This document shows positions 1 to 24,837 of a stretch of DNA of 32,903 nt, one piece after another; the stretch's first letter is position 1; every line of letters starts with the position of its first letter. Under the pieces are notes generated by a model. The model worked only from the letters and a program-made list of their open reading frames with translations, made no database searches and was not told the DNA's origin. A program made the position numbers and the translations under genes. Source of the stretch: a virus; IMG/VR virus record IMGVR_UViG_3300019487_000071, one strand, 5' to 3'.

Positions 1-1
1 C

Positions 2-976
2 TCGGATCATACCCATGCGATCAGTACAGGTGCTGCATCCTCTCAATCGCCTGACCAGGTAAACGGAATTGGTATTTCTGCCAACCTAGCTAGAGCCGAC
101 CACGTTCACAACATTCCTACGGCTACGGCTGTCAGCTTGGATGCTGCTTCTACTAATACTCAAGGTGTAGGAGTTTCGTTTGCTAGAAACGACCATACCC
201 ACGCAATCGGTACTGCGTTGGTTGGTGATATTACAACTATTCAGCCAGATGCTACTGCCTCTGCTGGTACCTCGAACAACTATGCTCGCGGTGATCATAG
301 GCACGCAATCGATGCAGCTGCTCCGTCTTCAAACTTGACGGCGACAACCACAAATGCTGAGGGTGCATCTACCAGTTTTGCTAGAGCAGATCATAGCCAT
401 GCTATTACAACTGGCGCAGCGTCAACGCAGACTCCTGACCAAGCGAATGCAACTGGTAGCTCTGCTAACGTAGCTCGTGCTGATCACGTCCACAACATAC
501 CTACTGCGGCTGCGAGCTCTATTGATACATCGTCTACGAATACGCAAGGTGCAGCAGCAACGTTTGCTCGTGCTGATCACACTCACGCAACCTCTGTCCT
601 TAGTCAGCAAGTAACAGCTACCGCTGATATCACTACTACTTCGGGCACTGACGTATTGATGACTACGATGACCATTACTCCAACAGCAGGTACATACCTA
701 GCTATGTTTAGCGGAAGCGTAGAAACTTCTTCTAACAATGCTGACGTGTTTGTTAACTTGTATGTGGGTGGTTCTATCCTAGCACATACGGAAAGACAGG
801 CAACAAACGCTAACTCTGGTTTCGGAGCGAGCGCTGCAGGAACCTGTTTCCCGATTGCAACACAATCTATCGTGACAGTGAACGGTTCTCAGGCTGTTGA
901 AGCTCGTTGGAGACGTTCTGCTGGTACAGCTACCTCTCACGAAAGAACTTTGACATTGATCAGATTGAGTAATTAA
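2..976 (+). CDS. Tail fibre-like protein with ARxDHxH repeats (5' partial)
   Basis: The frame is open from position 2 (SDHTHAIS...), upstream of the ORF-track start at 137. It has about 7 Thr/Ala/Ser-rich ~29-30 aa repeats ending ARxDH(T/V/R/S)H, followed by a beta-rich C-terminal domain. Confidence 0.7.
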   Translation, partial: SDHTHAISTGAASSQSPDQVNGIGISANLARADHVHNIPTATAVSLDAASTNTQGVGVSFARNDHTHAIGTALVGDITTIQPDATASAGTSNNYARGDHRHAIDAAAPSSNLTATTTNAEGASTSFARADHSHAITTGAASTQTPDQANATGSSANVARADHVHNIPTAAASSIDTSSTNTQGAAATFARADHTHATSVLSQQVTATADITTTSGTDVLMTTMTITPTAGTYLAMFSGSVETSSNNADVFVNLYVGGSILAHTERQATNANSGFGASAAGTCFPIATQSIVTVNGSQAVEARWRRSAGTATSHERTLTLIRLSN

Positions 977-13002: not shown

Positions 13003-13077
13003 TGGCGGGAGTGCAAGGATTTGAACCCTGATCGTCTGGGTTGGAACCAGGCATGCTAGCCGTTGCACCACACTCCC
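13003..13077 (-). tRNA. tRNA-Trp(CCA)
   Basis: Cloverleaf; anticodon loop TTCCAAC; G73; encoded CCA. Confidence 0.9.
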
Positions 13078-13082
13078 ATTTT

Positions 13083-13157
13083 TGGAGCACTTGCTGGGAA
13101 TCGAACCCAGTCATTGAGTTTTGCAGACTCACCCTCATCCCAATCAGGCACAAGTGC
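13083..13157 (-). tRNA. tRNA-Cys(GCA)
   Basis: Loop CTGCAAA; U73; CCA. Confidence 0.92.
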
Positions 13158-13162
13158 AATTT

Positions 13163-13235
13163 TGGTGTCCAGCGTGGAGTCTAACCACCCAACCCTAAGA
13201 CGTCTCAAAGGGTCCATCACGCGAATGTGCCGGAC
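13163..13235 (-). ncRNA. tRNA-like RNA with Pyl-like body and 12-nt anticodon loop
   Basis: GTCCGGC/GCTGGAC acceptor stem + ACCA; 1-nt connector; CATT-CGCGT-GATG D arm; ACCCT/AGGGT stem with loop TTGAGACGTCTT; T loop TTAGACT. Confidence 0.65.
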
Positions 13236-13240
13236 ATATT

Positions 13241-13314
13241 TGGCGGTGCTAAGGAGAATCGAACTCCTGACTACCCGTAGACAGCGGGCGATCTTACCAC
13301 TAAACGATAGCACC
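13241..13314 (-). tRNA. tRNA-Asp(GTC)
   Basis: Loop CTGTCTA (U37); G73; CCA. Confidence 0.9.
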
Positions 13315-13321
13315 AAATTTT

Positions 13322-13397
13322 TGGGGTGTAATATCGGGTTCGATCCGATCCTTGCTGCTTCACAGGCAACCGTGCTAGCCACTACACTAAAAACACC
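13322..13397 (-). tRNA. tRNA-His(GTG)
   Basis: Loop CTGTGAA; G-1:C73; T loop ATCGAAC; two U-U mismatches in the acceptor stem. Confidence 0.85.
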
Positions 13398-13408
13398 ATC
13401 TTAAATTT

Positions 13409-13483
13409 TGGAGCCGATGCCCGGAATCGAACCGGATTTTCCGCCTTACAAGAGCGGCACATCACCTTTTATGCTTCATCGGC
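13409..13483 (-). tRNA. tRNA-Thr(TGT)
   Basis: Loop CTTGTAA; CCA. Confidence 0.9.
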
Positions 13484-13753
13484 ATCTTGCCATGTGGCCT
13501 TCTCAAGGAGAAAGTTCATATAGTCTCTGCAATACTGCAGCGAATCTTTTCTATCTCTACCCATGTAATGCCAGCTCAATGAGCTACCTAGGTAGGTATG
13601 CATATTTCCAACATACAAACAATCATCTAGCTTCATCAACGGAAGCCACGGAAGGTGCTCGTAGTTGGCTGCTGTGTTGAAGATATCCATGTCCATCTTC
13701 CTCTTGCACAGCATGCGTTTAAAGTCAACAATGTATCTATCGTCTTCAAACAT
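13469..13753 (-). CDS. Hypothetical protein; stop codon inside tRNA-Thr(TGT)
   Basis: 94-aa ORF filling the gap between two Thr tRNAs. Confidence 0.55.
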   Translation of the reverse strand: MFEDDRYIVDFKRMLCKRKMDMDIFNTAANYEHLPWLPLMKLDDCLYVGNMHTYLGSSLSWHYMGRDRKDSLQYCRDYMNFLLEKATWQDADEA

Positions 13754-13757
13754 AATC

Positions 13758-13832
13758 TGGAGCCAGTACTGAGAATCGAACTCAGGTCACAATCATACCA
13801 AGATCGTGTAATCGCCACTATACTATACCGGC
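13758..13832 (-). tRNA. tRNA-Thr(GGT)
   Basis: GCCGGTA/TACTGGC acceptor stem; loop TTGGTAT; CCA. Confidence 0.9.
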
Positions 13833-13833
13833 A

Positions 13834-14085
13834 TTATCGCTTTGCTCCTTGATCTACCCACTTTTTAATCACTCTGCGTTCATCAAAAGGCATCGAACTA
13901 GGTGGCATGCTTAGATTATCCCAAACACGACGCTTAATCACTAAGCGATTTGCATAAGCTACATCGTACTCCATCCAGTTCTTTGCTGGCCACTTTGCAT
14001 CGTGGCATTGAGCACATCGTTTTTCAAAGATGGGTCGAACATCTCTGTAAGAAACTGTTGCTATCATTAGCAAACTTATTAACAT
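13834..14085 (-). CDS. Small c-type cytochrome
   Basis: Hydrophobic N-terminus; VRPIFEKRCAQCH (CxxCH heme motif); MPP possible axial Met; C-terminal WVDQGA. Confidence 0.75.
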   Translation of the reverse strand: MLISLLMIATVSYRDVRPIFEKRCAQCHDAKWPAKNWMEYDVAYANRLVIKRRVWDNLSMPPSSMPFDERRVIKKWVDQGAKR

Positions 14086-14159
14086 TGGAGCCCCATAAGA
14101 GAATCGAACTCTTGATTACTGATTACGAATCAGTGGTTATACCACTTAACTAACAGGGC
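14086..14159 (-). tRNA. tRNA-Thr(CGT)
   Basis: Loop TTCGTAA; CCA. Confidence 0.92.
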
Positions 14160-14571
14160 ATTTCCACCAATTAAAGTCTTTGGCAGTTTTTCTTCTATGA
14201 CAATTAGCGCACAAAATATCGCATTTGTCCATTTCTTTTTGGAGCTTATCTAAGCTAAGTCCGTGACTAACAGCTTCACTTATGTTAAACTCTTTATCGC
14301 TTATATGATCAAAGTCTAAAACTATGGGATCTGCTTCGTTACAGGTCTTGCAAGGATTCTTGAGGAGGTGCTTTAGGACGTATTCTTGTGCGACCTTTCT
14401 TCTCTTTAAAATGTGCTCTTGCTTTCTAGCATTAAATGTAATTGGATCTTTATGTCTACGCTCTTTTTGATATAGCGATTTGCAAGGTTTGCAGCAGTTT
14501 TGAAATCCGGAACCTCTTTTATGATATTCACTAAGAATCTTATTTTGTCCACATTTATTACAAACCTTCAT
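14146..14571 (-). CDS. HNH endonuclease; stop codon inside tRNA-Thr(CGT)
   Basis: N-terminal CxxC motifs; LDFDHI...KCDILCANCH. Confidence 0.88.
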   Translation of the reverse strand: MKVCNKCGQNKILSEYHKRGSGFQNCCKPCKSLYQKERRHKDPITFNARKQEHILKRRKVAQEYVLKHLLKNPCKTCNEADPIVLDFDHISDKEFNISEAVSHGLSLDKLQKEMDKCDILCANCHRRKTAKDFNWWKCPVS

Positions 14572-14580
14572 ATAAGCCCT

Positions 14581-14898
14581 TTACTTTAAATTATCGAGCA
14601 GTACGTTTTGATTTTCGACGAAGAACTCTCTTGCTTCAGAGGGTGCTTCGCTGATCAACTGCTTAAGAAACGCTTGGGCCTGTAGCTTCACCTTGAACGA
14701 ACCCACTTTCTTAAAGTTCAGAAAAATTGAAATATCATCTGAAGATGTATTGCAAACCTTTTCGCCCTTAGTGAAACAAGCGTCGAATATTTTTAGCTGG
14801 CCATAGTCTTTAAAGTCTATAAAGCTAAAACTATTCTGGAAGTCGTTGATCACTCCCACTCGATACCGATTGTTGTTAATTGACCTCCGTATTGCCAA
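14581..14898 (-). CDS. Hypothetical protein
   Basis: 105-aa ORF with GGAGG RBS. Confidence 0.6.
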   Translation of the reverse strand: MAIRRSINNNRYRVGVINDFQNSFSFIDFKDYGQLKIFDACFTKGEKVCNTSSDDISIFLNFKKVGSFKVKLQAQAFLKQLISEAPSEAREFFVENQNVLLDNLK

Positions 14899-15202
14899 TT
14901 AAATTTGTTAAATATCTTTCAACTCTTTGACAGATAATGTCAGGATTGCCTTTGCGTAAACTATTCTTTTCCATTTCGTCTAAACCCTGATATTCACTCC
15001 AGTATGTGTCGACCGTGCTTAAAGCATAATCTCCGTCATCTTTAGGAGAATCTAACTTAAGGTTTTCCAGCGCACCTTTAGTATTGCCATTCATCGCTTC
15101 AACTGCTGCAATAACTCTTCTAACTTTGAGAAGTCCATCTGGAGTCATATAACCATGACGTGAGTAAACTTCTTCAACAGTTCTTTTTCCAAATTCATTC
15201 AT
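14876..15202 (-). CDS. Hypothetical protein
   Basis: 108-aa ORF with AAGGAG RBS. Confidence 0.65.
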   Translation of the reverse strand: MNEFGKRTVEEVYSRHGYMTPDGLLKVRRVIAAVEAMNGNTKGALENLKLDSPKDDGDYALSTVDTYWSEYQGLDEMEKNSLRKGNPDIICQRVERYLTNLIGNTEVN

Positions 15203-15219
15203 AAACTATCTCCTTAATA

Positions 15220-15295
15220 TGGTAGTCCCAGAAAGATTCGAACTTTCAATGACCGGTTCGTAGCCGATAGGTTTATCCAGTTAGCCTATGGGACC
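15220..15295 (-). tRNA. tRNA-Arg(ACG)
   Basis: Loop CTACGAA; CCA. Confidence 0.92.
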
Positions 15296-15312
15296 ATATT
15301 ACTTTAAAATTT

Positions 15313-15388
15313 TGGTCGCTGTAAAAGGACTCGAACCTTTATAACACGGCTTATGAGACCGGTACGTAACCTCTCCGTACATACAGCG
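15313..15388 (-). tRNA. tRNA(CAT): elongator Met or Ile2
   Basis: Loop CTCATAA; C1-G72 is paired and the three G-C anticodon-stem pairs are absent, so it is not an initiator tRNA. Confidence 0.85.
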
Positions 15389-15389
15389 A

Positions 15390-15464
15390 TGGTAGCCAGT
15401 GAGGGAGTCGAACCCACGTTTCCGCTTTGTAAGAGCGGCGTATTCCCGTTATACAGAACCGGCT
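15390..15464 (-). tRNA. tRNA-Val(TAC)
   Basis: Loop CTTACAA; CCA. Confidence 0.9.
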
Positions 15465-15473
15465 GCATATTTC

Positions 15474-15611
15474 GTTATGGCTAGGCTTTGTCGGGTTATT
15501 GTGCCTAACGTCCCGCCGCTATAGATACTGATCCACAGGTTCAAGCCTGGGTGTATCTCAGCAGAGCTGCACCGCGCGTCCCGCATGAGTTATACCTCAC
15601 ACGAGCATAAC
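15474..15611 (-). ncRNA. Candidate multi-hairpin ncRNA
   Basis: Ends pair (GTTATG/CATAAC); internal hairpins GTGTGAG/CTCATGC, GATAC..CCAGG/CCTG..GTATC and TAGGC/GCCTA; no ORF of 60 aa or more. Confidence 0.55.
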
Positions 15612-15616
15612 AAATT

Positions 15617-15693
15617 TGGTAGGAGTAACTGGATTTGAACCAATATCAACCGCCTATCAAGCGGCCGCACTAACCAGGTTGTGCTATACTCCC
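15617..15693 (-). tRNA. tRNA-Ile(GAT)
   Basis: Loop TTGATAG; CCA. Confidence 0.92.
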
Positions 15694-16205
15694 ATACTTT
15701 TAAAATTCAATCTTGCAAACACTCCGAATTCTTCTGTGGCTTTAGCATCGTATGCCTTAGCAGCATCTTCTTCGGATTCAAAGTAACCTATATGAATACT
15801 TTTACCATTAACTCTAATCGATGCTTCAAACTTGTTCCTGTCAAATCTCTTTCTAACTCCAGTATATTTGGAGGTTTTGCCAGTACTAGGTTTACCTCTA
15901 TTTCTACAATTTTCAGCGTGAGTGCAAACCCTTAAGTTTTCTCTAGTGTTGTTAAGCGGATCGCCATCGATATGGTCAACCTCATAACCGCTAGGTGGAT
16001 TCATAATAATGTTATGCATCCAAAACTTTTTAACTTTGCCATCTATAGACTTCTTAAAGCCTGCCTTAAAACCGTATAAGTGCTGATTGCCATTCGCGCT
16101 TGTTCCTGCAATTCTGTAAGCACTCCATTTGTACTTTGAGATTAAGTCAAAGTCTTCATCGCTTATCTTGGCAACCTGATTTTGAGTCAATTGTATAGTC
16201 TTCAT
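15684..16205 (-). CDS. HNH endonuclease with C-terminal AP2 domain; stop codon inside tRNA-Ile
   Basis: MHNIIM...VDHIDGDPLNNTRENLR; KYTGV...IHIGYF..EEDAAKAYD. Confidence 0.92.
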   Translation of the reverse strand: MKTIQLTQNQVAKISDEDFDLISKYKWSAYRIAGTSANGNQHLYGFKAGFKKSIDGKVKKFWMHNIIMNPPSGYEVDHIDGDPLNNTRENLRVCTHAENCRNRGKPSTGKTSKYTGVRKRFDRNKFEASIRVNGKSIHIGYFESEEDAAKAYDAKATEEFGVFARLNFKSMGV

Positions 16206-16220
16206 GTTTTACCTATAAAA

Positions 16221-16299
16221 TGGTCGGGCATAGTGGATTTGAACCACTGATCTCTAGTTCCCAAAACTAGCGCGATAAACCAGGCTTCGCTAATGCCCG
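16221..16299 (-). tRNA. tRNA-Pro(TGG) #1
   Basis: Loop TTTGGGA; C1-G72; CCA. Confidence 0.92.
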
Positions 16300-16306
16300 T
16301 AACTTT

Positions 16307-16525
16307 TGGTGTTCGCTGTAGGCCTCAAACCTACGACTCCAGCCTCAAATGCGATGTGCGGGTGGCTGGTGTTTTTTCGCGAGACGTTTCGTACTTGATT
16401 TCTATTGTTCATCAGGTCTTGTCCGGCGTTTAACCGGCTCGACGTTTCTATGAGCTTCCGCCCATCGCATTGTTACCTGACGATTTTTCAACCTTTCCTA
16501 CTAATCCTCTCTAAACTAAACGAAC
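16307..16525 (-). ncRNA. 219-nt tRNA-like (tmRNA-reminiscent) RNA
   Basis: Acceptor stem GTTCGTT/AGCGAAC + ACCA; T arm GTAGG-TTTGAGG-CCTAC; about 180-nt internal segment with long, crossing helices. Confidence 0.65.
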
Positions 16526-16537
16526 ACATACTAACTT

Positions 16538-16615
16538 TGGTCGAGTATCTAGGATTTGAACCTAGGATCTCCTGTATCCAAAACAGGCGGCCACTCCATA
16601 CTGGCCCAATACTCG
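16538..16615 (-). tRNA. tRNA-Pro(TGG) #2
   Basis: Loop TTTGGAT (A37 instead of G37); CCA. Confidence 0.88.
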
Positions 16616-16628
16616 ATACATAAACTTT

Positions 16629-16702
16629 TGGAGCACCTAGAGGGAGTCGAACCCTCGCCACCAGATTGGAAGTCTAGCGTGCTGCCGTAACACTTCAGGT
16701 GC
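16629..16702 (-). tRNA. tRNA-Gly(TCC)
   Basis: Loop CTTCCAA; U73; CCA. Confidence 0.92.
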
Positions 16703-16705
16703 ATA

Positions 16706-16755
16706 TTGAACTTGTCATACTATCGTTATTTGCGAACGGTTTCGCACAAGTTCAA
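16706..16755. other. Intergenic bulged hairpin
   Basis: Perfect 10-bp stem TTGAACTTGT/ACAAGTTCAA enclosing GCGAA/TTCGC. Confidence 0.6.
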
Positions 16756-16759
16756 ATTT

Positions 16760-16833
16760 TGGCAGGGAAACCTGGAATCGAACCAAGGTTGGCGGAGTCA
16801 AAGGCCGCTGTCTTACCACTAGACGATTTCCCT
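16760..16833 (-). tRNA. tRNA-Gln(TTG)
   Basis: Loop CTTTGAC; G73; CCA. Confidence 0.92.
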
Positions 16834-16844
16834 ACATTAAATTT

Positions 16845-16926
16845 TGGTGCCCAAGGCGAGATTCGAACTCGCATGCTTTCGCGCTGGTTTCTAAGACCAG
16901 TGTGTCTGCCATTCCACCACTCGGGC
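16845..16926 (-). tRNA. tRNA-Leu(TAG)
   Basis: Loop CTTAGAA; long variable arm; CCA. Confidence 0.92.
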
Positions 16927-16927
16927 A

Positions 16928-17001
16928 TGGCTGGGAAACCTGGAATCGAACCAAGGTTGACCGCTTCAGAGACGGCTGTCTTACCACTAGACGATTTCCC
17001 A
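16928..17001 (-). tRNA. tRNA-Gln(CTG)
   Basis: Loop CTCTGAA; body near-identical to Gln(TTG); CCA. Confidence 0.92.
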
Positions 17002-17006
17002 ATTTT

Positions 17007-17080
17007 TGGAGCGCGTAGCCAGAATCGAACTGGCGAATCCTCCATGGCAAGGAGACAGGTTACCACTACATCACACGCGC
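17007..17080 (-). tRNA. tRNA-Gly(GCC)
   Basis: Loop TTGCCAT; U73; CCA. Confidence 0.92.
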
Positions 17081-17088
17081 ACTCGCTC

Positions 17089-17421
17089 TTATTTTTCTAA
17101 AACATCCCTTTCAAATACTAGGTCAATCAACAGTTGTTCTGCTGTGCCATTAAATCCATAATACTTAAAATCTCTCATCTTCAAAGCTTCTAACGAAGTC
17201 TCTTCAGGTGACCATTGCTCTTCAAGTCCGTTGCACGAGCAATGCGATGCATTCACTTCGTACAGCTTTCCTTCCTTGTTGAACAAGATGAGTGCAGAAC
17301 CTTCGTAGCTTTCGCCCTCGTAGACGGCGAAGAGGATATCACAGCCATCAAGCTCTGAGACGTCAATCTCGAAAGCATTAGCAATTTCTTGCTTGTCCAT
17401 GTTATCGCTCTTCGTCCACAT
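17089..17421 (-). CDS. Hypothetical phage protein
   Basis: ILFAVYE...YEGSA...KLYEVNASHCSC.GLE.QW.PE; C-terminal FERDVLE motif. Confidence 0.75.
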   Translation of the reverse strand: MWTKSDNMDKQEIANAFEIDVSELDGCDILFAVYEGESYEGSALILFNKEGKLYEVNASHCSCNGLEEQWSPEETSLEALKMRDFKYYGFNGTAEQLLIDLVFERDVLEK

Positions 17422-17425
17422 ACAC

Positions 17426-17965
17426 CTATCCTGTTTCTAGCTCTGCTGTCCAGTAGACTAAGCTCCTGGTATCAACATAGCTCTTCCATTCTTCCGGAAC
17501 CTTCTTCATCCTAATCACTAGCTGAGCTGGTAGCCATGTGGGTTCCACTGGCCTCCTAAGCAACTTCATCTTCGCTTGCTCAGGAGTACGGTTAGCCTTG
17601 TAATGATTGCATGGGCGACATGCAGCCACGATGTTGGTCCAACTCGTAATACCACCTTGATCTCTAGGAAGAACGTGATCGAACGTTAAATCCTTGGTAG
17701 GCTTCCTCTCGTTACAGTATTGGCAAGTCCAACCATCTCTCAAGTAGATATTGATCCTGCTAAACTGCGCCTTACCCTTCCTCTTAAACTTCTTAAGTTG
17801 CCTAATAACGCTAGGCATCTTCCATTCTTGCGTCGCAGACCTGACAACATTATCGCCAGATTCTTCTACAACTTCAGCATCACCAGTGACTACAAGCTGC
17901 ATAGCTTTCATCCAGGTGATGATTTTTAACGGCTCATATGTGCTGTCAAGAAGTAACACTCTCAT
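17426..17965 (-). CDS. HNH endonuclease (McrA/HNH_5-like)
   Basis: VLLLDSTYEPL...RDGWTCQYC...LTFDHVLPR...SWTNIVAACRPCNHYK. Confidence 0.92.
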   Translation of the reverse strand: MRVLLLDSTYEPLKIITWMKAMQLVVTGDAEVVEESGDNVVRSATQEWKMPSVIRQLKKFKRKGKAQFSRINIYLRDGWTCQYCNERKPTKDLTFDHVLPRDQGGITSWTNIVAACRPCNHYKANRTPEQAKMKLLRRPVEPTWLPAQLVIRMKKVPEEWKSYVDTRSLVYWTAELETG

Positions 17966-17971
17966 GATATT

Positions 17972-18307
17972 TCATTCTCCATGTTTCTCATTCCAGTGCA
18001 GTTTTCTGTGACAGTTAGAGCAGAGGATATCACACTTTTTGAGTTCTCCTGATACTCTTTCTTTGCTCCACTTTCTATCTACCGCATCACTTATCTCAAT
18101 CTCTTTTTCTGTTGGATTTCTATGATGAAAATCCAGGCAACCTATATGATTCTCAGGACAACGAGCGCACTTAGCATTTGCTAATATTTCTTCTCGAAGC
18201 CATCGTCTCAATTCTGCTCTTTGTGCTTGTTGTTTTTCGTACATGTGCTTTTTATTGCGCTTGTACCAAGCCTTCTGAGCTTTCTTTTGTCTTTCTTTAT
18301 CCCTCAT
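17972..18307 (-). CDS. HNH endonuclease
   Basis: CARC...LDFHHRNP...KCDILCSNCHRKLH. Confidence 0.88.
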   Translation of the reverse strand: MRDKERQKKAQKAWYKRNKKHMYEKQQAQRAELRRWLREEILANAKCARCPENHIGCLDFHHRNPTEKEIEISDAVDRKWSKERVSGELKKCDILCSNCHRKLHWNEKHGE

Positions 18308-18308
18308 G

Positions 18309-18326
18309 ATATCTCCTAGGAGATAT
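18309..18326 (-). promoter_or_regulatory. Palindrome sequestering the RBS of the HNH gene
   Basis: Perfect palindrome ATATCTCCTAGGAGATAT contains GGAG and sits just 5' of the ATG at 18307. Confidence 0.55.
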
Positions 18327-18357
18327 TGTATCAGGTCAAAGTACTAGACCAAATCTT

Positions 18358-18433
18358 TGGTGCCTCCGTAGAGAATCGAGCCCTCTTCCACGGGTTAAAA
18401 GCCCGCTGCTCATCCATTAAAGCGTTCGGAGGC
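18358..18433 (-). tRNA. tRNA-Lys(TTT)
   Basis: Loop CTTTTAA; T loop CTCGATT; CCA. Confidence 0.88.
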
Positions 18434-18436
18434 ATA

Positions 18437-18510
18437 TGGTGGGTCTACGAAGAATCGAACTTCGGTCTACTGGTTAAGAGCCAGCAGCTTTACCACTAAG
18501 CTATAAACCC
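18437..18510 (-). tRNA. tRNA-Lys(CTT)
   Basis: Loop CTCTTAA; CCA. Confidence 0.93.
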
Positions 18511-18515
18511 GCTCC

Positions 18516-18662
18516 TTACCTTTTCATTATCAAGTCACATGCTTTGTTTACTGTTTCTCGTTTCGTTATTTTCAATTTTTCTAATGTTCTAAAGAGTTGC
18601 CAAGTTAGTCCCCATTTTTTTTTGGATCCCGACAGACAATCTTCCTTAGAAACTAATTTCAT
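18516..18662 (-). CDS. Small hypothetical ORF (48 aa)
   Basis: MKLVSKEDCL...; fills the gap between tRNA-Ala and tRNA-Lys. Confidence 0.3.
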   Translation of the reverse strand: MKLVSKEDCLSGSKKKWGLTWQLFRTLEKLKITKRETVNKACDLIMKR

Positions 18663-18668
18663 AATCTT

Positions 18669-18743
18669 TGGTGGACCGCTGGAGAATTGAACTCCACCAA
18701 CCGCAGTGCAAGTGCAGTTCGCCACCTTGGTACATGGCGGCCC
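18669..18743 (-). tRNA. tRNA-Ala(TGC)
   Basis: Loop CTTGCAC; G3.U70; A73; CCA. Confidence 0.9.
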
Positions 18744-18786
18744 ATATCTAACCTAATTGTAACTTAATTCCGTACTGTATTTGTTA

Positions 18787-18924
18787 TTACGCCCAGAGCG
18801 GATGGCGTTTCGTCTTAGGTTGTGGCATGACGCCATCAATACCTTGAACGCATGGGAGCACGGTGGCGCGAGTATCGCGCTGTGCTGCTTTTAGAATTGT
18901 AGTGTTGCGTCCAAACGAATTCAT
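18787..18924 (-). CDS. Leaderless small ORF (45 aa) overlapping strong hairpins
   Basis: CGTGG-TAGAAT + 6 nt + ATG; MNSFGRNTT...HPLWA. Confidence 0.35.
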   Translation of the reverse strand: MNSFGRNTTILKAAQRDTRATVLPCVQGIDGVMPQPKTKRHPLWA

Positions 18925-18946
18925 AATTTCATTCTACCACGAGTTT

Positions 18947-19144
18947 TTATTGACCTAGTAAAATTTTTTCAACTTGTTCTTTTAGCTCTTCAAAGCGCTT
19001 TTCTGCGATCTTTTCGGCGTGTTCCGGTGAACCGCAACTAGCGATTATTCTTCCAGTTCTCTTGTCTTGGACTATCCAATCCCTGTGGGGATTAGGCCCG
19101 CTATAGACCAAGAAGACTTGGTCCCACTTAGTTGGGAAGGACAT
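18947..19144 (-). CDS. Hypothetical protein (C-terminal VEKILLG motif)
   Basis: 65-aa ORF coupled to its neighbour. Confidence 0.65.
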   Translation of the reverse strand: MSFPTKWDQVFLVYSGPNPHRDWIVQDKRTGRIIASCGSPEHAEKIAEKRFEELKEQVEKILLGQ

Positions 19145-19364
19145 CTACTCGCCTCCACATGTCATACTGATCCTTGTTGATCTGCACAGAATGTGAAGCA
19201 TAATCTAGCAAATACCCACCAGAACCAAAATCCCTGCGCCAATACTTCACCTTAAGTTTTGTATACTCTGGTCCGATGTATTGAACCTTCTCGATGATGA
19301 GTTCAAGATCGTTTCCGCAAAGGTGGCGATACCTAGCGCCAGGAGTGAATCTGCTTCTGAACAT
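19128..19364 (-). CDS. Hypothetical protein
   Basis: 78-aa ORF; GAGG RBS. Confidence 0.6.
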   Translation of the reverse strand: MFRSRFTPGARYRHLCGNDLELIIEKVQYIGPEYTKLKVKYWRRDFGSGGYLLDYASHSVQINKDQYDMWRRVDVLPN

Positions 19365-19365
19365 G

Positions 19366-19770
19366 TTACCTCAACAATGATTTCTCGGTTGCTCTATTTA
19401 GCAATTCCGCTCTAAGGATTTCGATCAGCTGCGGTGAAAACTTTTCTTTGTAATCGTGCTTGCGGGATAGTTTCAGTAAAAATTTTAGATCAGATTCGCT
19501 GAATGTGATGGCTACTTGGCGATGATCTTCGTCTTCAAGTTCCTTACGAAGTGTCGTATAGCGTTCATCAGTCTTTCGCTCTTGATCTTGAAAGTAGAGA
19601 GCCGCAGGGATAAGCACAAGCATCGTGAACGGCCAGATGAGTAGTAGGATGGAACCTAACACAACATCATCTCTACCAATATCGACCTTCTCGCCTTTCT
19701 TCGTAGATGCAAGAAGTATGATAACTGCCCACAACATCACTGTCAATGAATATAGGAAAGCGATAATCAT
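19366..19770 (-). CDS. Two-TM membrane protein
   Basis: Two hydrophobic helices, including LLIWPFT; C-terminal TEKSLLR. Confidence 0.7.
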   Translation of the reverse strand: MIIAFLYSLTVMLWAVIILLASTKKGEKVDIGRDDVVLGSILLLIWPFTMLVLIPAALYFQDQERKTDERYTTLRKELEDEDHRQVAITFSESDLKFLLKLSRKHDYKEKFSPQLIEILRAELLNRATEKSLLR

Positions 19771-19792
19771 GGGTATGAGTAGTATCGGAAAA

Positions 19793-19868
19793 TGGTACCT
19801 CCAACGGGAGTCGAACCCGTATTCCTACCTTGAGAGGGTAGTGTCCTAGGCCATTAGACGATGGAGGC
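19793..19868 (-). tRNA. tRNA-Glu(CTC)
   Basis: Loop CTCTCAA; CCA. Confidence 0.9.
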
Positions 19869-19874
19869 ATAGTT

Positions 19875-19952
19875 TGGAAGCGCGGCCGGGTGTCGATCCC
19901 GGTTCTCCTGGTTGAAAGCCAAGTATCCTAGCCAAGCGTAGACGAACGCGCC
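19875..19952 (-). tRNA. tRNA-Glu(TTC)
   Basis: Loop CTTTCAA; T loop ATCGACA; CCA. Confidence 0.85.
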
Positions 19953-19991
19953 ATGCGATTTAAGGGAGATTTGGGTGTGCGAGGGGAGGGA

Positions 19992-20069
19992 TTAAGCGAA
20001 TAGACCGACGCACACCAAGCGTTCTTGCTCGGCTTCCATGAATTGGATTGTGAATTGTGCGTTGTTCAT
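19992..20069 (-). CDS. Leaderless small ORF (25 aa)
   Basis: CGTGG-TATAAT + 6 nt + ATG; MNNAQFTIQFMEAEQERLVCVGLFA. Confidence 0.35.
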   Translation of the reverse strand: MNNAQFTIQFMEAEQERLVCVGLFA

Positions 20070-20087
20070 ATTTTGATTATACCACGA

Positions 20088-20342
20088 TTACCAGTACCAG
20101 GTATCGAATAGTTCTTTTGCAGACTTAAGTCTTAATTTAGTAAGGAATTGAAGCAGTTGACCGATGCGGACTTCTCTCATAGTGGGTCCACGGTCGTGAT
20201 AGTCTTCAAACAGCCAGTCATCGTGACACATGAAGCAATAGTCTGCTTCCTCGTGATAGGTTCCAGCATAGCACTTCACGATAGGGGATTTGTCAGCTGC
20301 AGCCCTGTTGTACTTGTGGTTTCTCTTGCTGTTGAGACTCAT
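20088..20342 (-). CDS. Hypothetical protein
   Basis: 84-aa ORF with a C...CxxC motif. Confidence 0.55.
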   Translation of the reverse strand: MSLNSKRNHKYNRAAADKSPIVKCYAGTYHEEADYCFMCHDDWLFEDYHDRGPTMREVRIGQLLQFLTKLRLKSAKELFDTWYW

Positions 20343-20344
20343 TA

Positions 20345-21379
20345 TTAAATCTTACCATGCGCTCCATTCTCTTTAGTAGAGTTGGGCGTGATTAGGTTAA
20401 AAGCAGCTCTCATGCGGAACTCATCTAGGGAACGAGCACCGACATAAGTCATAGAGGAACGCAAGCCGCCTTCGATGTCTTGTAGGACATAAGCAACTGG
20501 TCCTTTGCAACGAACTAGGAAGGACTCACCTTCCGCAGTGCGCCATGAACTATCTTTGCCCTGAGCTTCGTAGCTCTCTTTAGAGGCTGACCCACGATAC
20601 TTCTTGAACCATACTCCTGCACCAGCATCCAATGTCTGGACCTTTTGTCCAGGGGTTTCGTCTGTGCCAGAGAGCATTCCGCCGACCATAACAAGCTTAG
20701 CTCCAGCTGCAAGTGCCTTAGCGATATCACCTGGAGTTTTGAGTCCTCCGTCCGCAATAACGTTTGCTCCGGTTGCAACGCAATCCATGATGGCCGATAG
20801 CTGAGGAACTCCAATACCCGTCTTGATGCGAGTGGTACATGCAGAGCCTGGACCAACGCCAACCTTGTAGTAGGCAACAATCGGTGCGCCAAGATGATAC
20901 TCAAAATCTTTGATCGATTGTCCAGTTGCAAAGTTCCCTGCAGTGATGTAAACCTTGTTGCTAAGGGCATCGTGAACAGCTTTCGCTTGCTCAACAACCG
21001 CAAGTTGAGCTCCATGTGCAACATCAATGACGATGTTAGTGGCTCCCACCGTTGCTAGTGCAACAGCTCGTTCCAACTCATATTCACCTAAGCCGATAGA
21101 AATAGCGGGACCATAGCCGTTTGGCCATAGGCAGGACTTATAAATCCTCACATTATCTTCGATAGACCCGAAGCGGTGTAGGCAGCCAATTCCGCCAGCG
21201 CTACCCATTGCATTCGCCATCTCGAAACCTGTGACGGTATCCATGTTGGCAGAGATGACAGGAAGTGAGAGTTTGGCATCACCGAAGTGAGTTGTCAAGT
21301 CTACTTCCTTACGGGACTTAATGCTAGAGAAACCTGGGGCGATCAGCACATCATCGAACGTGAACAGCTGCTTGTCCAT
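20345..21379 (-). CDS. guaC: GMP reductase (IMPDH/GMPR family, no CBS domains)
   Basis: [32 protein letters not shown] and KYRGSAS; GSAS fits GuaC better than the IMPDH GMGS. Confidence 0.85.
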
Positions 21380-21387
21380 TGTGGATC

Positions 21388-21876
21388 CTATTTGAGGAGG
21401 TCAGTGAGGTGGGACCACATAGCTTCATTCTCGCCAGTGGTGTATAGAGCTTCTTTAAAGCCTTGGAACTCTTTCTTGTACATGTTTAGGAAGTCTTGCT
21501 CGTGCTCAATAGAGGCTTCAACGTTCGCAATGCGGTCAGCGAGCTTGAGAACCACTGCGTCCTTAGACGCTTTGATTTTAACGTACGTCTTGACGTGGCG
21601 TTCCTTGCGATTCTTTCCCGGCTCATTTGTGACACGCCAAACAAGGTCTCGTACGCGAGCACCAAATAGTTCTTCAATTTCTTCGAGAGAGACATCGGTG
21701 TCTTCAACTGTATCGTGAAGCCAGGCGGCCATTTGGAGTTCTTCATCGTTTACTCCGAACCTAGCAAGGACGTTAACTACAGCATACAGGTGCTTGGTGT
21801 ACGGACCACCGTCGTACTCTTGCCCTAGGTGGGCATCAGCTGCGAACTCTCTTGCTTTAGATAGAGCATCAGACAT
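21388..21876 (-). CDS. HD-domain small alarmone hydrolase (RelA/SpoT hydrolase, Mesh1-like)
   Basis: AH.GQ...PYTKHL..V, LHDTVEDT and LKLADRIAN. Confidence 0.88.
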   Translation of the reverse strand: MSDALSKAREFAADAHLGQEYDGGPYTKHLYAVVNVLARFGVNDEELQMAAWLHDTVEDTDVSLEEIEELFGARVRDLVWRVTNEPGKNRKERHVKTYVKIKASKDAVVLKLADRIANVEASIEHEQDFLNMYKKEFQGFKEALYTTGENEAMWSHLTDLLK

Positions 21877-22259
21877 TATGCACCAACGTAGATAGGTTCA
21901 CCAGGTCCTACGAAACTGTAGAGACCGTCTTTTACTTTCTTAAATTCGGCGTCAGGTGCGCGATACACCATCGAGATGTCGCGGCGAACAAAGACTTCGT
22001 TCCTCTTCTTATCGAAGTAGAGGACATAGCCTAAAGCCTCGTTTCGTTCGACATAATAATCTAAGTCTTTATCGTTGCCGTAGCAGATGAAGATACGATC
22101 ATCACGAGAACGGTCACGCTTCTTGATTTCAGACTTTTTCTTTTCCATTGGCATGGGCATATTTGTATTATACGAATTGATTTTTGATGTGGCGGAGAGC
22201 ATCCTATTCGAAAGGAACGCAGAGTGAACATGCGCGATATGCTTAGCAGACATTCCCAT
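21876..22259 (-). CDS. Hypothetical protein
   Basis: ORF coupled to the hydrolase start; true start uncertain. Confidence 0.5.
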   Translation of the reverse strand: MGMSAKHIAHVHSAFLSNRMLSATSKINSYNTNMPMPMEKKKSEIKKRDRSRDDRIFICYGNDKDLDYYVERNEALGYVLYFDKKRNEVFVRRDISMVYRAPDAEFKKVKDGLYSFVGPGEPIYVGA

Positions 22260-22288
22260 AGACCTCTATAGCTTTACTCTCCAAATTT

Positions 22289-22359
22289 TGGTACTCTCGA
22301 CTGGAATCGAACCAGTTCAGCAGCTTTAGGAAAGCTGTGCCTCGTCCTAGAGCGAGAGC
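22289..22359 (-). tRNA. tRNA-Arg(CCT), shortened D arm
   Basis: Loop TTCCTAA; 71 nt; CCA. Confidence 0.8.
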
Positions 22360-22360
22360 A

Positions 22361-22431
22361 TGGTGCCCCTAGAAAGATTCGAACTTTCCTGACCGGATTA
22401 GAAGTCCAGCTGCCTATCCATTGGTAGGGGC
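22361..22431 (-). tRNA. tRNA-Arg(TCT), shortened D arm
   Basis: Loop CTTCTAA; 71 nt; CCA. Confidence 0.82.
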
Positions 22432-22857
22432 ATTGTATTCTTTGTACGCCTTCATCATGTATTTCCACTCATCCGGCGTAAAATTTTCGTTACGTGATAT
22501 GTTACATCTAGTACAACAAGGAACTACGTTCTTGGCAACATAATCATCGTTTGAATCTAGTCTATCTAGACCTGTTCCCATTTCTTTTTCAATGCTGGTT
22601 TGACAGTAGTGACAGTCTTGTGCAATAAGCTTCGAATAAGTCGCTAAATCTATTTCAAACTTTAATCCCCGCCCTTTTGCATTGCTAATTGCATTTTTGT
22701 GACGAGAGTTGGGTTTGAACTTGTTTTCTGCATACCATTTCTGTTTATTTTTATGCTTACATTCTTTGCACAAGCATTCGTGCCCGTCTTTGTAACGTTT
22801 ACTTTTGTTAAAATCTTTTTGCTCTTTATTTATTTTACATTTTGGACATGTTTTCAT
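22414..22857 (-). CDS. HNH-type endonuclease; stop codon inside tRNA-Arg(TCT)
   Basis: CxxC motifs; CHYC...GLDRLDS..DYVAKNVVPCCTRCN. Confidence 0.88.
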   Translation of the reverse strand: MKTCPKCKINKEQKDFNKSKRYKDGHECLCKECKHKNKQKWYAENKFKPNSRHKNAISNAKGRGLKFEIDLATYSKLIAQDCHYCQTSIEKEMGTGLDRLDSNDDYVAKNVVPCCTRCNISRNENFTPDEWKYMMKAYKEYNAPTNG

Positions 22858-22906
22858 GTCTCTATTGTATTATTAGGTTCGATTAAACATCGAACCACAT
22901 AAACTT

Positions 22907-22987
22907 GGTACCGGCCAAGGGACTCGAACCCTTACGCATTAGCGGCGCGTTTTAAGTGCGCTGTGTCTGCCATTCCACCACGCCGGC
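22907..22987 (-). tRNA. tRNA-Leu(TAA)
   Basis: Loop CTTAAAA; long variable arm; CCA. Confidence 0.9.
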
Positions 22988-22989
22988 AT

Positions 22990-23066
22990 TGGTAGCCCGA
23001 GTGGGAGTCGAACCCACAAAACTCAGTTTTTGAGACTGATACGTATGCCAGTTCCGTCATCGAGCC
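22990..23066 (-). tRNA. tRNA-Leu(CAA) with short variable loop
   Basis: Loop CTCAAAA; variable region only GTTTT; CCA. Confidence 0.85.
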
Positions 23067-23071
23067 ATATT

Positions 23072-23161
23072 TGGTGGGTTGTGAAGGAGTTGAACCATTC
23101 GTCTTCCCGCTCTACCGTTTAGAGACAACTGGGTTACAGCCAGCCGTAGAGAACACAACCC
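23072..23161 (-). tRNA. Atypical tRNA-Tyr(GTA)
   Basis: GGGTTGT/ACAACCC + ACCA; loop CTGTAAC; no canonical D arm; variable region about 28 nt. Confidence 0.7.
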
Positions 23162-23167
23162 AAACTA

Positions 23168-23521
23168 TTAAACTTCATCCATTCCGAGTTTGCGACTAAT
23201 CAAGTTGCCCTGATCACTTCGCTCCTCAATCTCAACATGTCCTAGACCTGCTTCAATCTTTAGCTTTAGCCAAGATTGGAATTCAGGCGTTGCGCACATT
23301 CTTTCGAAAGCAGTCTTGCGATTTTGACTTTGCTCTCTACTGTCGGTAGCCTTGCCTTCAGCACCACTAGATTCATGAACGCAGCGAACTCCGCTTGAGG
23401 TCTTCTGACGTTTCTGTCCGCCGTCTCCGCTACCTCTAAAAACGTCCCAGCGACAGTCAGCTGCCGTCACGCTGAACATCTTCGTTCGATTCTTTTTCCT
23501 TGCGCTCGACCCATTGTTCAT
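23168..23521 (-). CDS. Class I release-factor domain protein (ArfB/YaeJ-like peptidyl-tRNA hydrolase)
   Basis: FRGSGDGGQKRQKTSSGVRCVH...SREQSQNRKTAF: standalone GGQ domain with no codon-recognition domain. Confidence 0.88.
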   Translation of the reverse strand: MNNGSSARKKNRTKMFSVTAADCRWDVFRGSGDGGQKRQKTSSGVRCVHESSGAEGKATDSREQSQNRKTAFERMCATPEFQSWLKLKIEAGLGHVEIEERSDQGNLISRKLGMDEV

Positions 23522-23633
23522 AACTCACCCACTGGACATATCGGCTTTCACAAGAGCTGCATCCAGTTGGACCTACAGGTGCTTCAAATTCCACACCGCA
23601 TTTCTCGTTCATGCACTTGTACTTCTCATTCAT
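23457..23633 (-). CDS. Small Zn-ribbon-like protein
   Basis: CMNEKC...CSSC; overlaps the start of the RF-like gene by 65 nt. Confidence 0.4.
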   Translation of the reverse strand: MNEKYKCMNEKCGVEFEAPVGPTGCSSCESRYVQWVSYEQWVERKEKESNEDVQRDGS

Positions 23634-23638
23634 AAAAT

Positions 23639-23724
23639 TGGCGGAAGGTAGACGAATCGAACGCCCGACCTTTCGGTCGCCCTGGGGTTCAAGCCCAGTT
23701 GCCCACCATTGAGCGGTACCTTCC
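23639..23724 (-). tRNA. tRNA-Ser(TGA)
   Basis: Loop CTTGAAC; long variable arm; G73; CCA. Confidence 0.9.
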
Positions 23725-23731
23725 ATATTTG

Positions 23732-24042
23732 GTTAGAGACAGTCGATAAGCGGAATCCTGTCTAGGACTATCATTCGACTTGGACCGAACATTACTGTTG
23801 GCCTCTTTGCCTGGTACCCGATAGCACTCCGAGCAGGAGTATCACTATCCTATTTCCAGTTGCTGCACGAAGAGATTGCTCGTTTCACCCCAGTGTTTCG
23901 TAACCTACTCGACTGGACTCGTCTCTGTAGCTCTAATCGTCACCTCACGGTGCTGGGCCGTTAACCCATTCGTCGCTCTTGCAGTTCCGACTTTCCTCAC
24001 TCCTACTTGCGTAGGTCGCGCGATAGTCTGACCGTCTCTAAC
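23732..24042 (-). ncRNA. rnpB: RNase P RNA (compact)
   Basis: P1 TTAGAGACGGTC/GACTGTCTCTAA; P2 GACTATC/GATAGTC; CR-I GAGGAAAGTCGG; GCTACAGAGAC; GGTGAAAC; CR-V ACAGGATTCCGCTTAT. Confidence 0.92.
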
Positions 24043-24163
24043 AACTAACTTTTATAAGTCGATATAGTCGCGCGATAAGGGTTTTTGCTTCTTCAAGCTC
24101 TTCTCTTAGTTTAGCAATTTCTTGCTCCAACTCTCGCAACCTATTTTCTTCCTGTATCGTCAT
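24038..24163 (-). CDS. Small coiled-coil protein (41 aa)
   Basis: MTIQEENRLRELEQEIAKLREELEEAK...; its TAG overlaps the 5' strand of the RNase P P1 helix. Confidence 0.5.
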   Translation of the reverse strand: MTIQEENRLRELEQEIAKLREELEEAKTLIARLYRLIKVSC

Positions 24164-24169
24164 AAGCTT

Positions 24170-24246
24170 TGGCGCACCCTGTGGGACTCGAACCCACCAC
24201 AACTAGTTTAACAGACTAGTTTCTCCGCCCGGTAGAACTAAGGTGC
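24170..24246 (-). tRNA. tRNA-Asn(GTT) #1
   Basis: Loop CTGTTAA; G73; CCA. Confidence 0.88.
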
Positions 24247-24247
24247 A

Positions 24248-24278
24248 TGGTGCCGGCTAGTGGTTACGATCCACTGTC
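24248..24278 (-). pseudogene. Orphan tRNA 3' half (Phe-like)
   Basis: AGTGG-ATCGTAA-CCACT AGCCGGC ACCA with no matching 5' half directly upstream. Confidence 0.65.
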
Positions 24279-24371
24279 TTGTGTCCTTATTAAAGGCTTC
24301 GCTACAGTGACAATCTTGTATAACCTACCATCTGATGATCTTTTATACTTGCTCATAGTCTTCTTTCAGTT

Positions 24372-24447
24372 TGGTGCCGATTGTCAGTATCGATCTGACT
24401 CCTCTAGCTTTTCAGACTAGCGCTTCTACCTAGTTAGCTTAATCGGC
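24372..24447 (-). tRNA. tRNA-Phe(GAA)
   Basis: Loop CTGAAAA; T loop ATCGATA; CCA. Confidence 0.9.
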
Positions 24448-24759
24448 ATTTTGTAATTTTTCATGCTCTTCTGCGTGACAATTTGCACACAATAGAACAC
24501 ATTTCTTTAACTCTTCTTGAACTTTTTCCCAAGAAGGATTGCTTGCCTTTGAGATCTGAAAGTCCTTCTTTGTGGGATCTAAGTGATGAAACGATAAAGC
24601 TCGTTTACACCTTGAATATCCACAGTTTTGGCACTTACCTCCCATGAACGCTAGTGCCTTTTCCTTTATATTGCGTCTTGCGGTTCTAACCCTACATTTT
24701 GCGCAAATATTACGTTCTTTGTCTTTATGCTCTTTTCCACATGTAGTGCATAACTTCAT
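24439..24759 (-). CDS. HNH endonuclease; stop codon inside tRNA-Phe
   Basis: CQNC...LSFHHLDP...KCVLLCANCHAEEH. The ATG at 24759 follows the 3' end (GGAG) of tRNA-Asn #2. Confidence 0.88.
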   Translation of the reverse strand: MKLCTTCGKEHKDKERNICAKCRVRTARRNIKEKALAFMGGKCQNCGYSRCKRALSFHHLDPTKKDFQISKASNPSWEKVQEELKKCVLLCANCHAEEHEKLQNAD

Positions 24760-24763
24760 AACT

Positions 24764-24837
24764 TGGCTCCAGGGCAGGGACTCGAACCCCGATATCAGCA
24801 TTAACAGTGCAGCGTCCTACCATTAAACGACCCCGGA
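24764..24837 (-). tRNA. tRNA-Asn(GTT) #2
   Basis: Loop CTGTTAA; TCC/GGA acceptor; G73; CCA. Confidence 0.9.

Follow-up and report, generated by a model that had tools for sequence, protein, structure and literature searches.

RNase P RNA is the ribozyme that trims newly made tRNAs at their 5' ends, and it is regarded as a housekeeping ribozyme of cells and organelles. Class A RNase P RNAs read two marks on their substrates, an encoded 3'-CCA and a U at leader position -1, through L15 and J5/15. The GGU of L15 pairs with the 3'-CCA of the tRNA, and the J11/12 and J12/13 modules read the tRNA elbow, or T-loop. The class A RNA of E. coli, known as M1 RNA and encoded by rnpB, is 377 nt long. The stacked helices P13/P14 have been described as a hallmark of class A, as against the P10.1 of class B (PMC1874661). 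Archaeal type A RNAs are without P13/P14 and also without P18, and they depend on several proteins (PMC4919922). The bacterial protein subunit, RnpA, is interchangeable between species (PMC4919922). Among viruses, the only case that we found in the full-text literature is the RNase P-like RNA of camelpox virus, which has only some structural similarity to RNase P RNA and did not process pre-tRNA in vitro (PMC3001073); we found no report there of an RNase P RNA encoded by a phage.

Here we describe such a gene in a 32,903-nt stretch of viral DNA (IMG/VR record IMGVR_UViG_3300019487_000071), which we refer to in full as the window. An initial annotation, made from the letters alone, had called an RNase P RNA at positions 23732-24042 and had named Infernal against Rfam as a way to check it. 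When the whole window was searched with all Rfam 15 models, RF00010 (RNaseP_bact_a) matched at 24039..23731 on the minus strand over its full length (model positions 1-367), with 184.1 bits and an E value of 3.6e-58. The gathering score of this model is 100 bits, and overlapping matches within the RNase P clan were resolved to the best one, which was class A. The search bears out the call, shifts the ends of the gene by only 1-3 nt, supplies the strand that the call had left unnamed, and gave no other non-tRNA match anywhere in the window. The window RNA has the same core helices, pseudoknots, bulged U, L15 and P18 as bacterial class A RNAs, exemplified by M1 RNA and by the T. maritima RNA (PDB 3Q1R). 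It differs from them in being encoded by a phage, in lying within a tRNA array and in having no rnpA in the parts of the genome examined, and also in its build: it is 309 nt long, lacks P13/P14, has a short P3 and pairs weakly in P12. It shares the absence of P13/P14 with archaeal type A RNAs, but it keeps P18 and fits the bacterial model. Unlike the camelpox RNA, which is also virus-encoded, it scores highly as a complete member of the bacterial family, and no core motif is missing. What is new is the viral context of a well-known ribozyme family, not the fold. The features of the locus are collected in Table 1.

Table 1. Features of the RNase P RNA locus, in window coordinates (nt, position within the 309-nt RNA)
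Feature	Position	Strand	Basis or remark
RNase P RNA gene, class A, without P13/P14, 309 nt	23731..24039	-	RF00010 match, mapped structure, covariation
P4, 5' strand, nt 47-55, AAGUCGGAA, with bulged U50, within the conserved GAGGAAAGUC block	23985..23993	-	Pairs with nt 285-292
P4, 3' strand, nt 285-292, UUCCGCUU, within the conserved ACAG...GCUUA block	23748..23755	-	Mapped structure, covariation
P6 pseudoknot, 5' strand GAGC, nt 62-65	23975..23978	-	Partner GCUC, nt 206-209, in the P17 loop, 23831-23834
P13/P14 junction, between nt 157 and 158, GGGUGAAA then CGAGCAA	23882..23883	-	0 nt at the site
L15 motif CGGGUA, nt 220-225, holding GGU	23815..23820	-	C220, G221, G222, G223 and T224 invariant in 14 sequences
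P18 hairpin, GUAA tetraloop	23783..23803	-	Compensatory change in 8/8 pairs, 99% of cells paired
89-aa ORF, acidic, pI 5.0	23457..23726	-	ATG begins 5 nt past the 3' end of the ribozyme
41-aa coiled-coil-like ORF (MTIQEENRLRELEQEIAKLREELEEAK...)	24038..24163	-	Read from sequence; TAG stop overlaps the first two bases of P1
tRNA-Asn(GUU), closest tRNA upstream of the ribozyme	24170..24246	-	ARAGORN / Rfam
120-aa HNH-type nuclease ORF, upstream of the ribozyme	24439..24801	-	tblastn
tRNA array, 26 ARAGORN / 28 Rfam tRNA genes, with small ORFs and HNH nucleases interspersed	13003..24837	-	Presumed substrates

The window RNA can adopt the complete class A core. Mapping the RF00010 pairs onto the 309-nt RNA gave 87 pairs, the only misfits being a register shift in P3 and three inner pairs of P12; counted over the whole structure, 87 of 95 pairs are standard. 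Helices P1-P12 and P15-P18 are all present. P3 is a clean CCUAC/GUAGG hairpin of 5 bp, capped by a GCAA loop, at which the register of the model is off and the alignment is too variable to score, and the inner part of P12 pairs poorly. Both pseudoknots, which a covariance model cannot encode, are formable: P4 with 8 bp around the bulged U50 and P6 with 4 bp. The AGCAA segment of J5/15 is present, as are the J11/12 (ACAGA...) and J12/13 (GGUGAAA) modules. A fold computed from energy alone independently recovered P1, P3, P8, P9, P15-P17 and P18, with a modest thermodynamic z-score of -1.67. The initial annotation had recognized the core conserved regions of the family by reading. On the structure, P4 with its bulged U, P6, J5/15, L15, P18, J11/12 and J12/13 could all be placed.

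We then asked how this structure fares across relatives. Alignment A1 holds 11 viral and 3 bacterial RNAs, and in it the 95 pairs of the window structure were scored against slid partners and against 500 shuffles. Over the 14 RNAs, 88.3% of cells were paired, compared with 36-40% when partners were slid; both sides had changed at 71 of the 95 pairs, and none of the 500 shuffles reached the observed measures. The viral rows alone gave nearly the same picture (87.6% paired against 35-38% slid, with 69/95 pairs covarying), and within the six-member group that contains the window RNA 88.1% of cells were paired. When the window RNA is set against each relative in turn, 23-33 pairs are changed on both sides but remain able to pair, and 7-17 are broken. 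Pairing with compensatory changes was seen in P1 (97%), P2 (100%), P5 (98%), P15 (100%) and P18 (99%), and helices P7, P8, P9 and P10/11 of the specificity domain were 83-100% paired, again with covariation. P4 was 98% paired with three covarying pairs; its second pair past the bulged U (alignment columns 90/470) is G-C in nine sequences, C-G in four and A-U in one. In P6, both sides had changed in all four pairs and 82% of cells were paired. The ACAG of J11/12 and most of the GUGAAAC of J12/13 were invariant or nearly so. As judged from these alignments, the covariation pattern is that of a functional RNA under long purifying selection on its fold, not that of a decaying capture.

The most conspicuous departure from the family is the missing P13/P14. 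Directly after GGGUGAAA, 43 columns of RF00010 that make up these helices hold no residue in the window RNA. This site is bimodal in an alignment of 49 RNAs, with either 41-44 nt or 0-8 nt (the window RNA has 0), and P13/P14 is absent from 16 of the 26 viral rows and from 18/18 RNAs of the Pseudomonadota clade. The window RNA is thus without the described class A hallmark. P13/P14 does not decide membership in RF00010, because the sole rnpB genes of five Usitatibacter and other Burkholderiales genomes also lack it and still score 209-245 bits. The initial annotation had described a compact form apparently lacking P13/P14; the absence holds, but it is not peculiar to phage, and we rejected a phage-specific reduction as its explanation since the same state is native to these bacteria.

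Usitatibacter and other Burkholderiales MAGs also supplied the nearest bacterial rnpB genes by nhmmer. Their RNAs (L208, L134, L150, L197, L214 and L223) have the same deletion point, with GGGUGAAA followed directly by CG.GCAAUCUC, the same 43 empty columns and a similar size (307-360 nt against 309 nt). They further share with the window RNA a GUCGG variant of P4, which replaces the usual GUCCGG, and the ACAGAGACGAGUC block. A scan for the GUCGG pattern over one genome per species, which returned bacterial rnpB genes, led us to reject this variant as a phage signature, as bacteria of the Acidimicrobiia, Clostridia, Bdellovibrionota and Burkholderiales carry it natively. In contrast to the window RNA, the Usitatibacter/Burkholderiales genes are chromosomal and have no adjoining tRNA array; they are ~61-63% identical to it, form a separate clade and score higher against Rfam (209-245 bits). 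Each of the five genomes has the P13/P14-less gene as its single RF00010 match, so a class A RNA without these helices suffices for life and can carry an essential cellular function. Among 121 sampled Burkholderiales genomes 118 had an RF00010 match, and in 23 of the 118 the rnpB was at most 330 nt, which is the size class of those RNAs whose lack of P13/P14 was verified (the tally includes G432, which is flagged as unpublished and on which no statement here depends by itself). We did not find a P13/P14-less sole rnpB in Burkholderiales stated in the papers searched.

The source of the window is a large tailed phage of ~120 kb, uncultured, and not a host chromosome. Window proteins recur letter for letter in the assemblies of four independent samples (Logan SRR7811943 and SRR7811987, ENA ERZ27251176 and JGI 3300019458), and contigs of the same genome reach 123.9 kb in Logan and 118.5 kb in ENA. 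The ribozyme sequence itself was recovered on the 123.9-kb contig. Head and tail genes are found on the 118.5-kb contig at a distance of 7-15 kb leftward from the window: phrog_752, a major head protein (E 1.8e-54); phrog_1028, a head maturation protease (E 2e-10); and phrog_772, a tail-fibre protein (E 3.7e-33). This agrees with the initial annotation, which had taken the contig for phage DNA and not for a piece of host chromosome. The window adds ThyA, peptide deformylase, PTH2, an ArfB-like GGQ protein, HNH nucleases and thioredoxin. Its first ORF (1-976, plus strand; L255:5082-9368) encodes the C-terminal portion of a protein of 1428 aa whose gene closes the head/tail block; this protein has no family except a faint phrog_5231 match and may belong to the tail or its fibres. 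To the right of the window (L251-L253, ~12-38 kb past its end), the genome encodes RtcB RNA ligase, NAMPT, a NadR-like NMN adenylyltransferase/NUDIX protein, two ClpP and a Band_7 protein, together with a class II RNR, ThyX (besides the ThyA of the window), DNA ligase, RNase H and several homologues of T4 endonuclease VII. The anti-CBASS protein Acb5 is also encoded there, and dozens of small ORFs without a family are scattered among these genes.

Searches against 50,697 GenBank phage records gave no megablast or blastn match for 12 kb of the window, and tblastn with two proteins of the window genome against GenBank phages gave weak Vibrio-phage matches or none; by these comparisons, this is a phage without close cultured relatives. 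The ribozyme and two other viral RNase P RNAs likewise had no real blastn match among the 50,697 records, at a divergence where blastn is insensitive. INPHARED entry AGRM01000002.1 is a 691-kb contig of Salmonella enterica subsp. houtenae filed among phages; it gave the sole RNase P match in that collection, and this match is the host rnpB. An exact 34-mer of the window ribozyme was absent from IMG/VR. So far, the gene is documented only in assembled metagenomes.

Related RNAs are nevertheless encoded by many other viral contigs. A CR-I motif scan of IMG/VR gave at least 116 loci, of which 33 were run against Rfam. RF00010 matched at 29 of these 33, corresponding to at least 25 distinct RNAs of 269-415 nt that score 100-300 bits. 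Nearly all of these loci, on contigs of up to 463 kb, have tRNA genes on the same strand beside the RNase P RNA, and among the loci listed every tRNA gene within 2.5 kb is on the strand of the ribozyme. The viral RNAs (e.g. L027, L065, L052, L107, L041, L018 and L046) resemble the window RNA in lying in same-strand tRNA arrays, while they are at most 66% identical to it, some keep P13/P14, some are without P18 and some adjoin tmRNA. The RNAs of L037, L010, L041 and L069 have 0 nt in the alignment region of P18 and are as short as 269-274 nt, which suggests a graded series of reduction among the phage copies. A tmRNA shares the array with RNase P RNA in L113, L010/L020 and L078, at distances from <1 kb to ~6 kb. 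The tRNA array of L111 holds a GOLLD RNA and a CR-I motif but gave no RF00010 match.

The window RNA is ~60-66% identical to any bacterial or viral RNA that we sampled. In a maximum-likelihood tree built on 312 shared columns, it groups with the viral RNAs of L107, L065, L052 and L027 (SH-aLRT 83), inside an all-viral group of eight members (92). This viral group is separate from an 18-member bacterial clade without P13/P14 (90), and no starred branch encloses the window RNA. A single split of P13/P14-bearing from P13/P14-less RNAs is not rejected by the data (AU p 0.81, for a group named after the tree had been seen). The HNH ORF upstream of the ribozyme is common to the window, L027 and L065; its product is 57% identical to that of L027 and 47% to that of L065 by tblastn, and its position relative to the RNase P RNA is the same in both. 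We read the ribozyme gene as a probable long-term resident of the phage lineage, one that is possibly derived from an rnpB of the Burkholderiales type.

The two ORFs that flank the ribozyme most closely were considered as protein cofactors and rejected: both are acidic and without a family, and neither is conserved next to the ribozymes of relatives. For the 89-aa ORF there was no Pfam match and no tblastn match in the at least 116 viral loci, and no relatives were found for the 41-aa ORF. Release of the ribozyme RNA would strip the 41-aa ORF of its stop codon. Just downstream of the ribozyme, the ArfB-like protein (23168-23521, minus strand), which carries the GGQ motif in an RF-1 domain, is related, at 32-41% identity, to proteins of no fewer than four other viral tRNA arrays (L019, L097, L061 and L011). 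Three of these four arrays hold an RNase P RNA, and L019 has a CR-I motif at the cut end of the locus. The recurrence of the ArfB-like protein in arrays with RNase P RNA hints at a recurring set of genes for translation maintenance.

As the initial annotation had it, the ribozyme sits inside a tRNA array, among 26 tRNA genes called by ARAGORN or 28 by Rfam. There are ~29 in total, all on its strand. The 3'-CCA is encoded by 26/26 of the ARAGORN genes and by three found by Rfam only, and 22 of the 26 have a T (U) at leader position -1. That annotation had also seen no rnpA-like gene in the window, an absence that reaches further: no match to Ribonuclease_P (PF00825) is on record for any gene called in ~88 kb of the phage genome, including the whole window, and none occurs in four large viral records with a CheckV completeness of 83-100%, whereas the control search matched 10 well-known genomes.

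We propose that the window encodes an active ribozyme that borrows the RnpA of its host and raises the 5'-maturation capacity available to the phage's own tRNA array, a reading to which we give a probability of roughly three in four. The RNA would be transcribed within a minus-strand polycistron of tRNAs and ORFs and then processed. Co-transcription with the array is the simplest reading because an ORF stop codon overlaps the 5' end of the gene, the next ORF begins 5 nt past its 3' end, and no convincing promoter of its own was found; a scan for promoters and terminators around the gene gave nothing better than shuffled sequence. Once released, the RNA is predicted to adopt the class A architecture, the P13/P14 strut excepted, and to bind host RnpA in the infected cell, on the assumption that the two are compatible. 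Use of the host protein is most likely, as no rnpA was found in the parts of the phage genome examined. The holoenzyme would then cut the 5' leaders off the ~29 phage pre-tRNAs. The benefit may be added processing capacity during expression of a large tRNA array, with RNA synthesis by the host switched off.

A part other than catalysis is conceivable for an RNA that comes without its protein. With no phage subunit found, the RNA must compete for limited host RnpA, and it could act as a decoy or regulator that soaks up RnpA or competes with the host RNase P RNA, its own catalysis being dispensable; such a role has been discussed for the camelpox RNA, which did not process pre-tRNA in vitro (PMC3001073). 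A decoy, however, needs only a protein-binding surface, and yet the catalytic P4 with its bulged U, the A-rich J5/15, the L15 GGU and J11/12-J12/13 are invariant or covarying in the viral copies, and the tRNAs of the array carry optimal RNase P marks. We consider this role unlikely. The ribozyme might instead be active mainly on non-canonical substrates, such as tRNA-like RNAs, CCA minihelices or mRNAs with a stop codon embedded in a downstream tRNA, and might act protein-free. RNase P is known to cut substrates other than tRNA (PMC4919922), and one ORF stop was confirmed to overlap the P1 of the ribozyme itself. Against these stand the ~29 canonical tRNAs, which bear CCA and U(-1) and far outnumber any other plausible substrate, and the retention of the S-domain core that reads the T-loop, which together make a mainly non-canonical role quite improbable.

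Origin and assembly offer two further explanations in which the phage would gain nothing from the RNA. Phages often pick up host genes, and both the P13/P14-less architecture and several sequence blocks match the rnpB of Usitatibacter/Burkholderiales, as they would if a host gene had recently been captured and were drifting as a passenger or pseudogene. But a recent passenger sits poorly with an RNA that is only ~60-66% identical to anything sampled while keeping 87/95 pairs standard, that shows 23-33 two-sided compensated pairs against 7-17 broken ones per relative, and that groups with viral copies and not with bacteria; we regard it as very unlikely. It is also the case that some CR-I matches in IMG/VR have no tRNA gene nearby, and that the signature recurs in several contigs from isolate genomes, which may be host DNA flanking a prophage. 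For the window, a piece of host chromosome mis-assembled or mis-binned into a viral contig is nonetheless extremely improbable: its proteins are identical in the assemblies of four independent samples, the ribozyme lies on the 123.9-kb Logan contig, with phage ORFs only 0-5 nt away and a phage tRNA/HNH array around it, and head and tail genes are on the same genome.

The other viral copies allow a wider, tentative extension. They may represent long-lived viral lineages of RNase P RNA as opposed to repeated recent captures from hosts, in which a Burkholderiales-like donor passed on the P13/P14-less form a single time, after which this form spread among large phages, and in which the phage ribozyme takes over host RnpA and shifts tRNA maturation towards its own array. 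We hold this combined scenario to be less likely than not; if true, it would be the first case known of a ribozyme from a virus that acts in trans on a pathway of cellular type. The finding raises the questions of how an RNA subunit that brings no protein along competes for the RnpA of its host, and whether substrate choice shifts during infection. The sequence of such a ribozyme may also carry a signal of the host, and here it resembles the P13/P14-less rnpB of Burkholderiales. For work on structure and function, the viral copies are natural minimized class A ribozymes of 269-415 nt. Phages are already seen to carry tRNAs, tmRNA, peptide deformylase, PTH2, ArfB-like factors and RtcB, and an intact, selected and recurrent RNase P RNA would add the 5' maturation of tRNA to these phage-borne translation functions.
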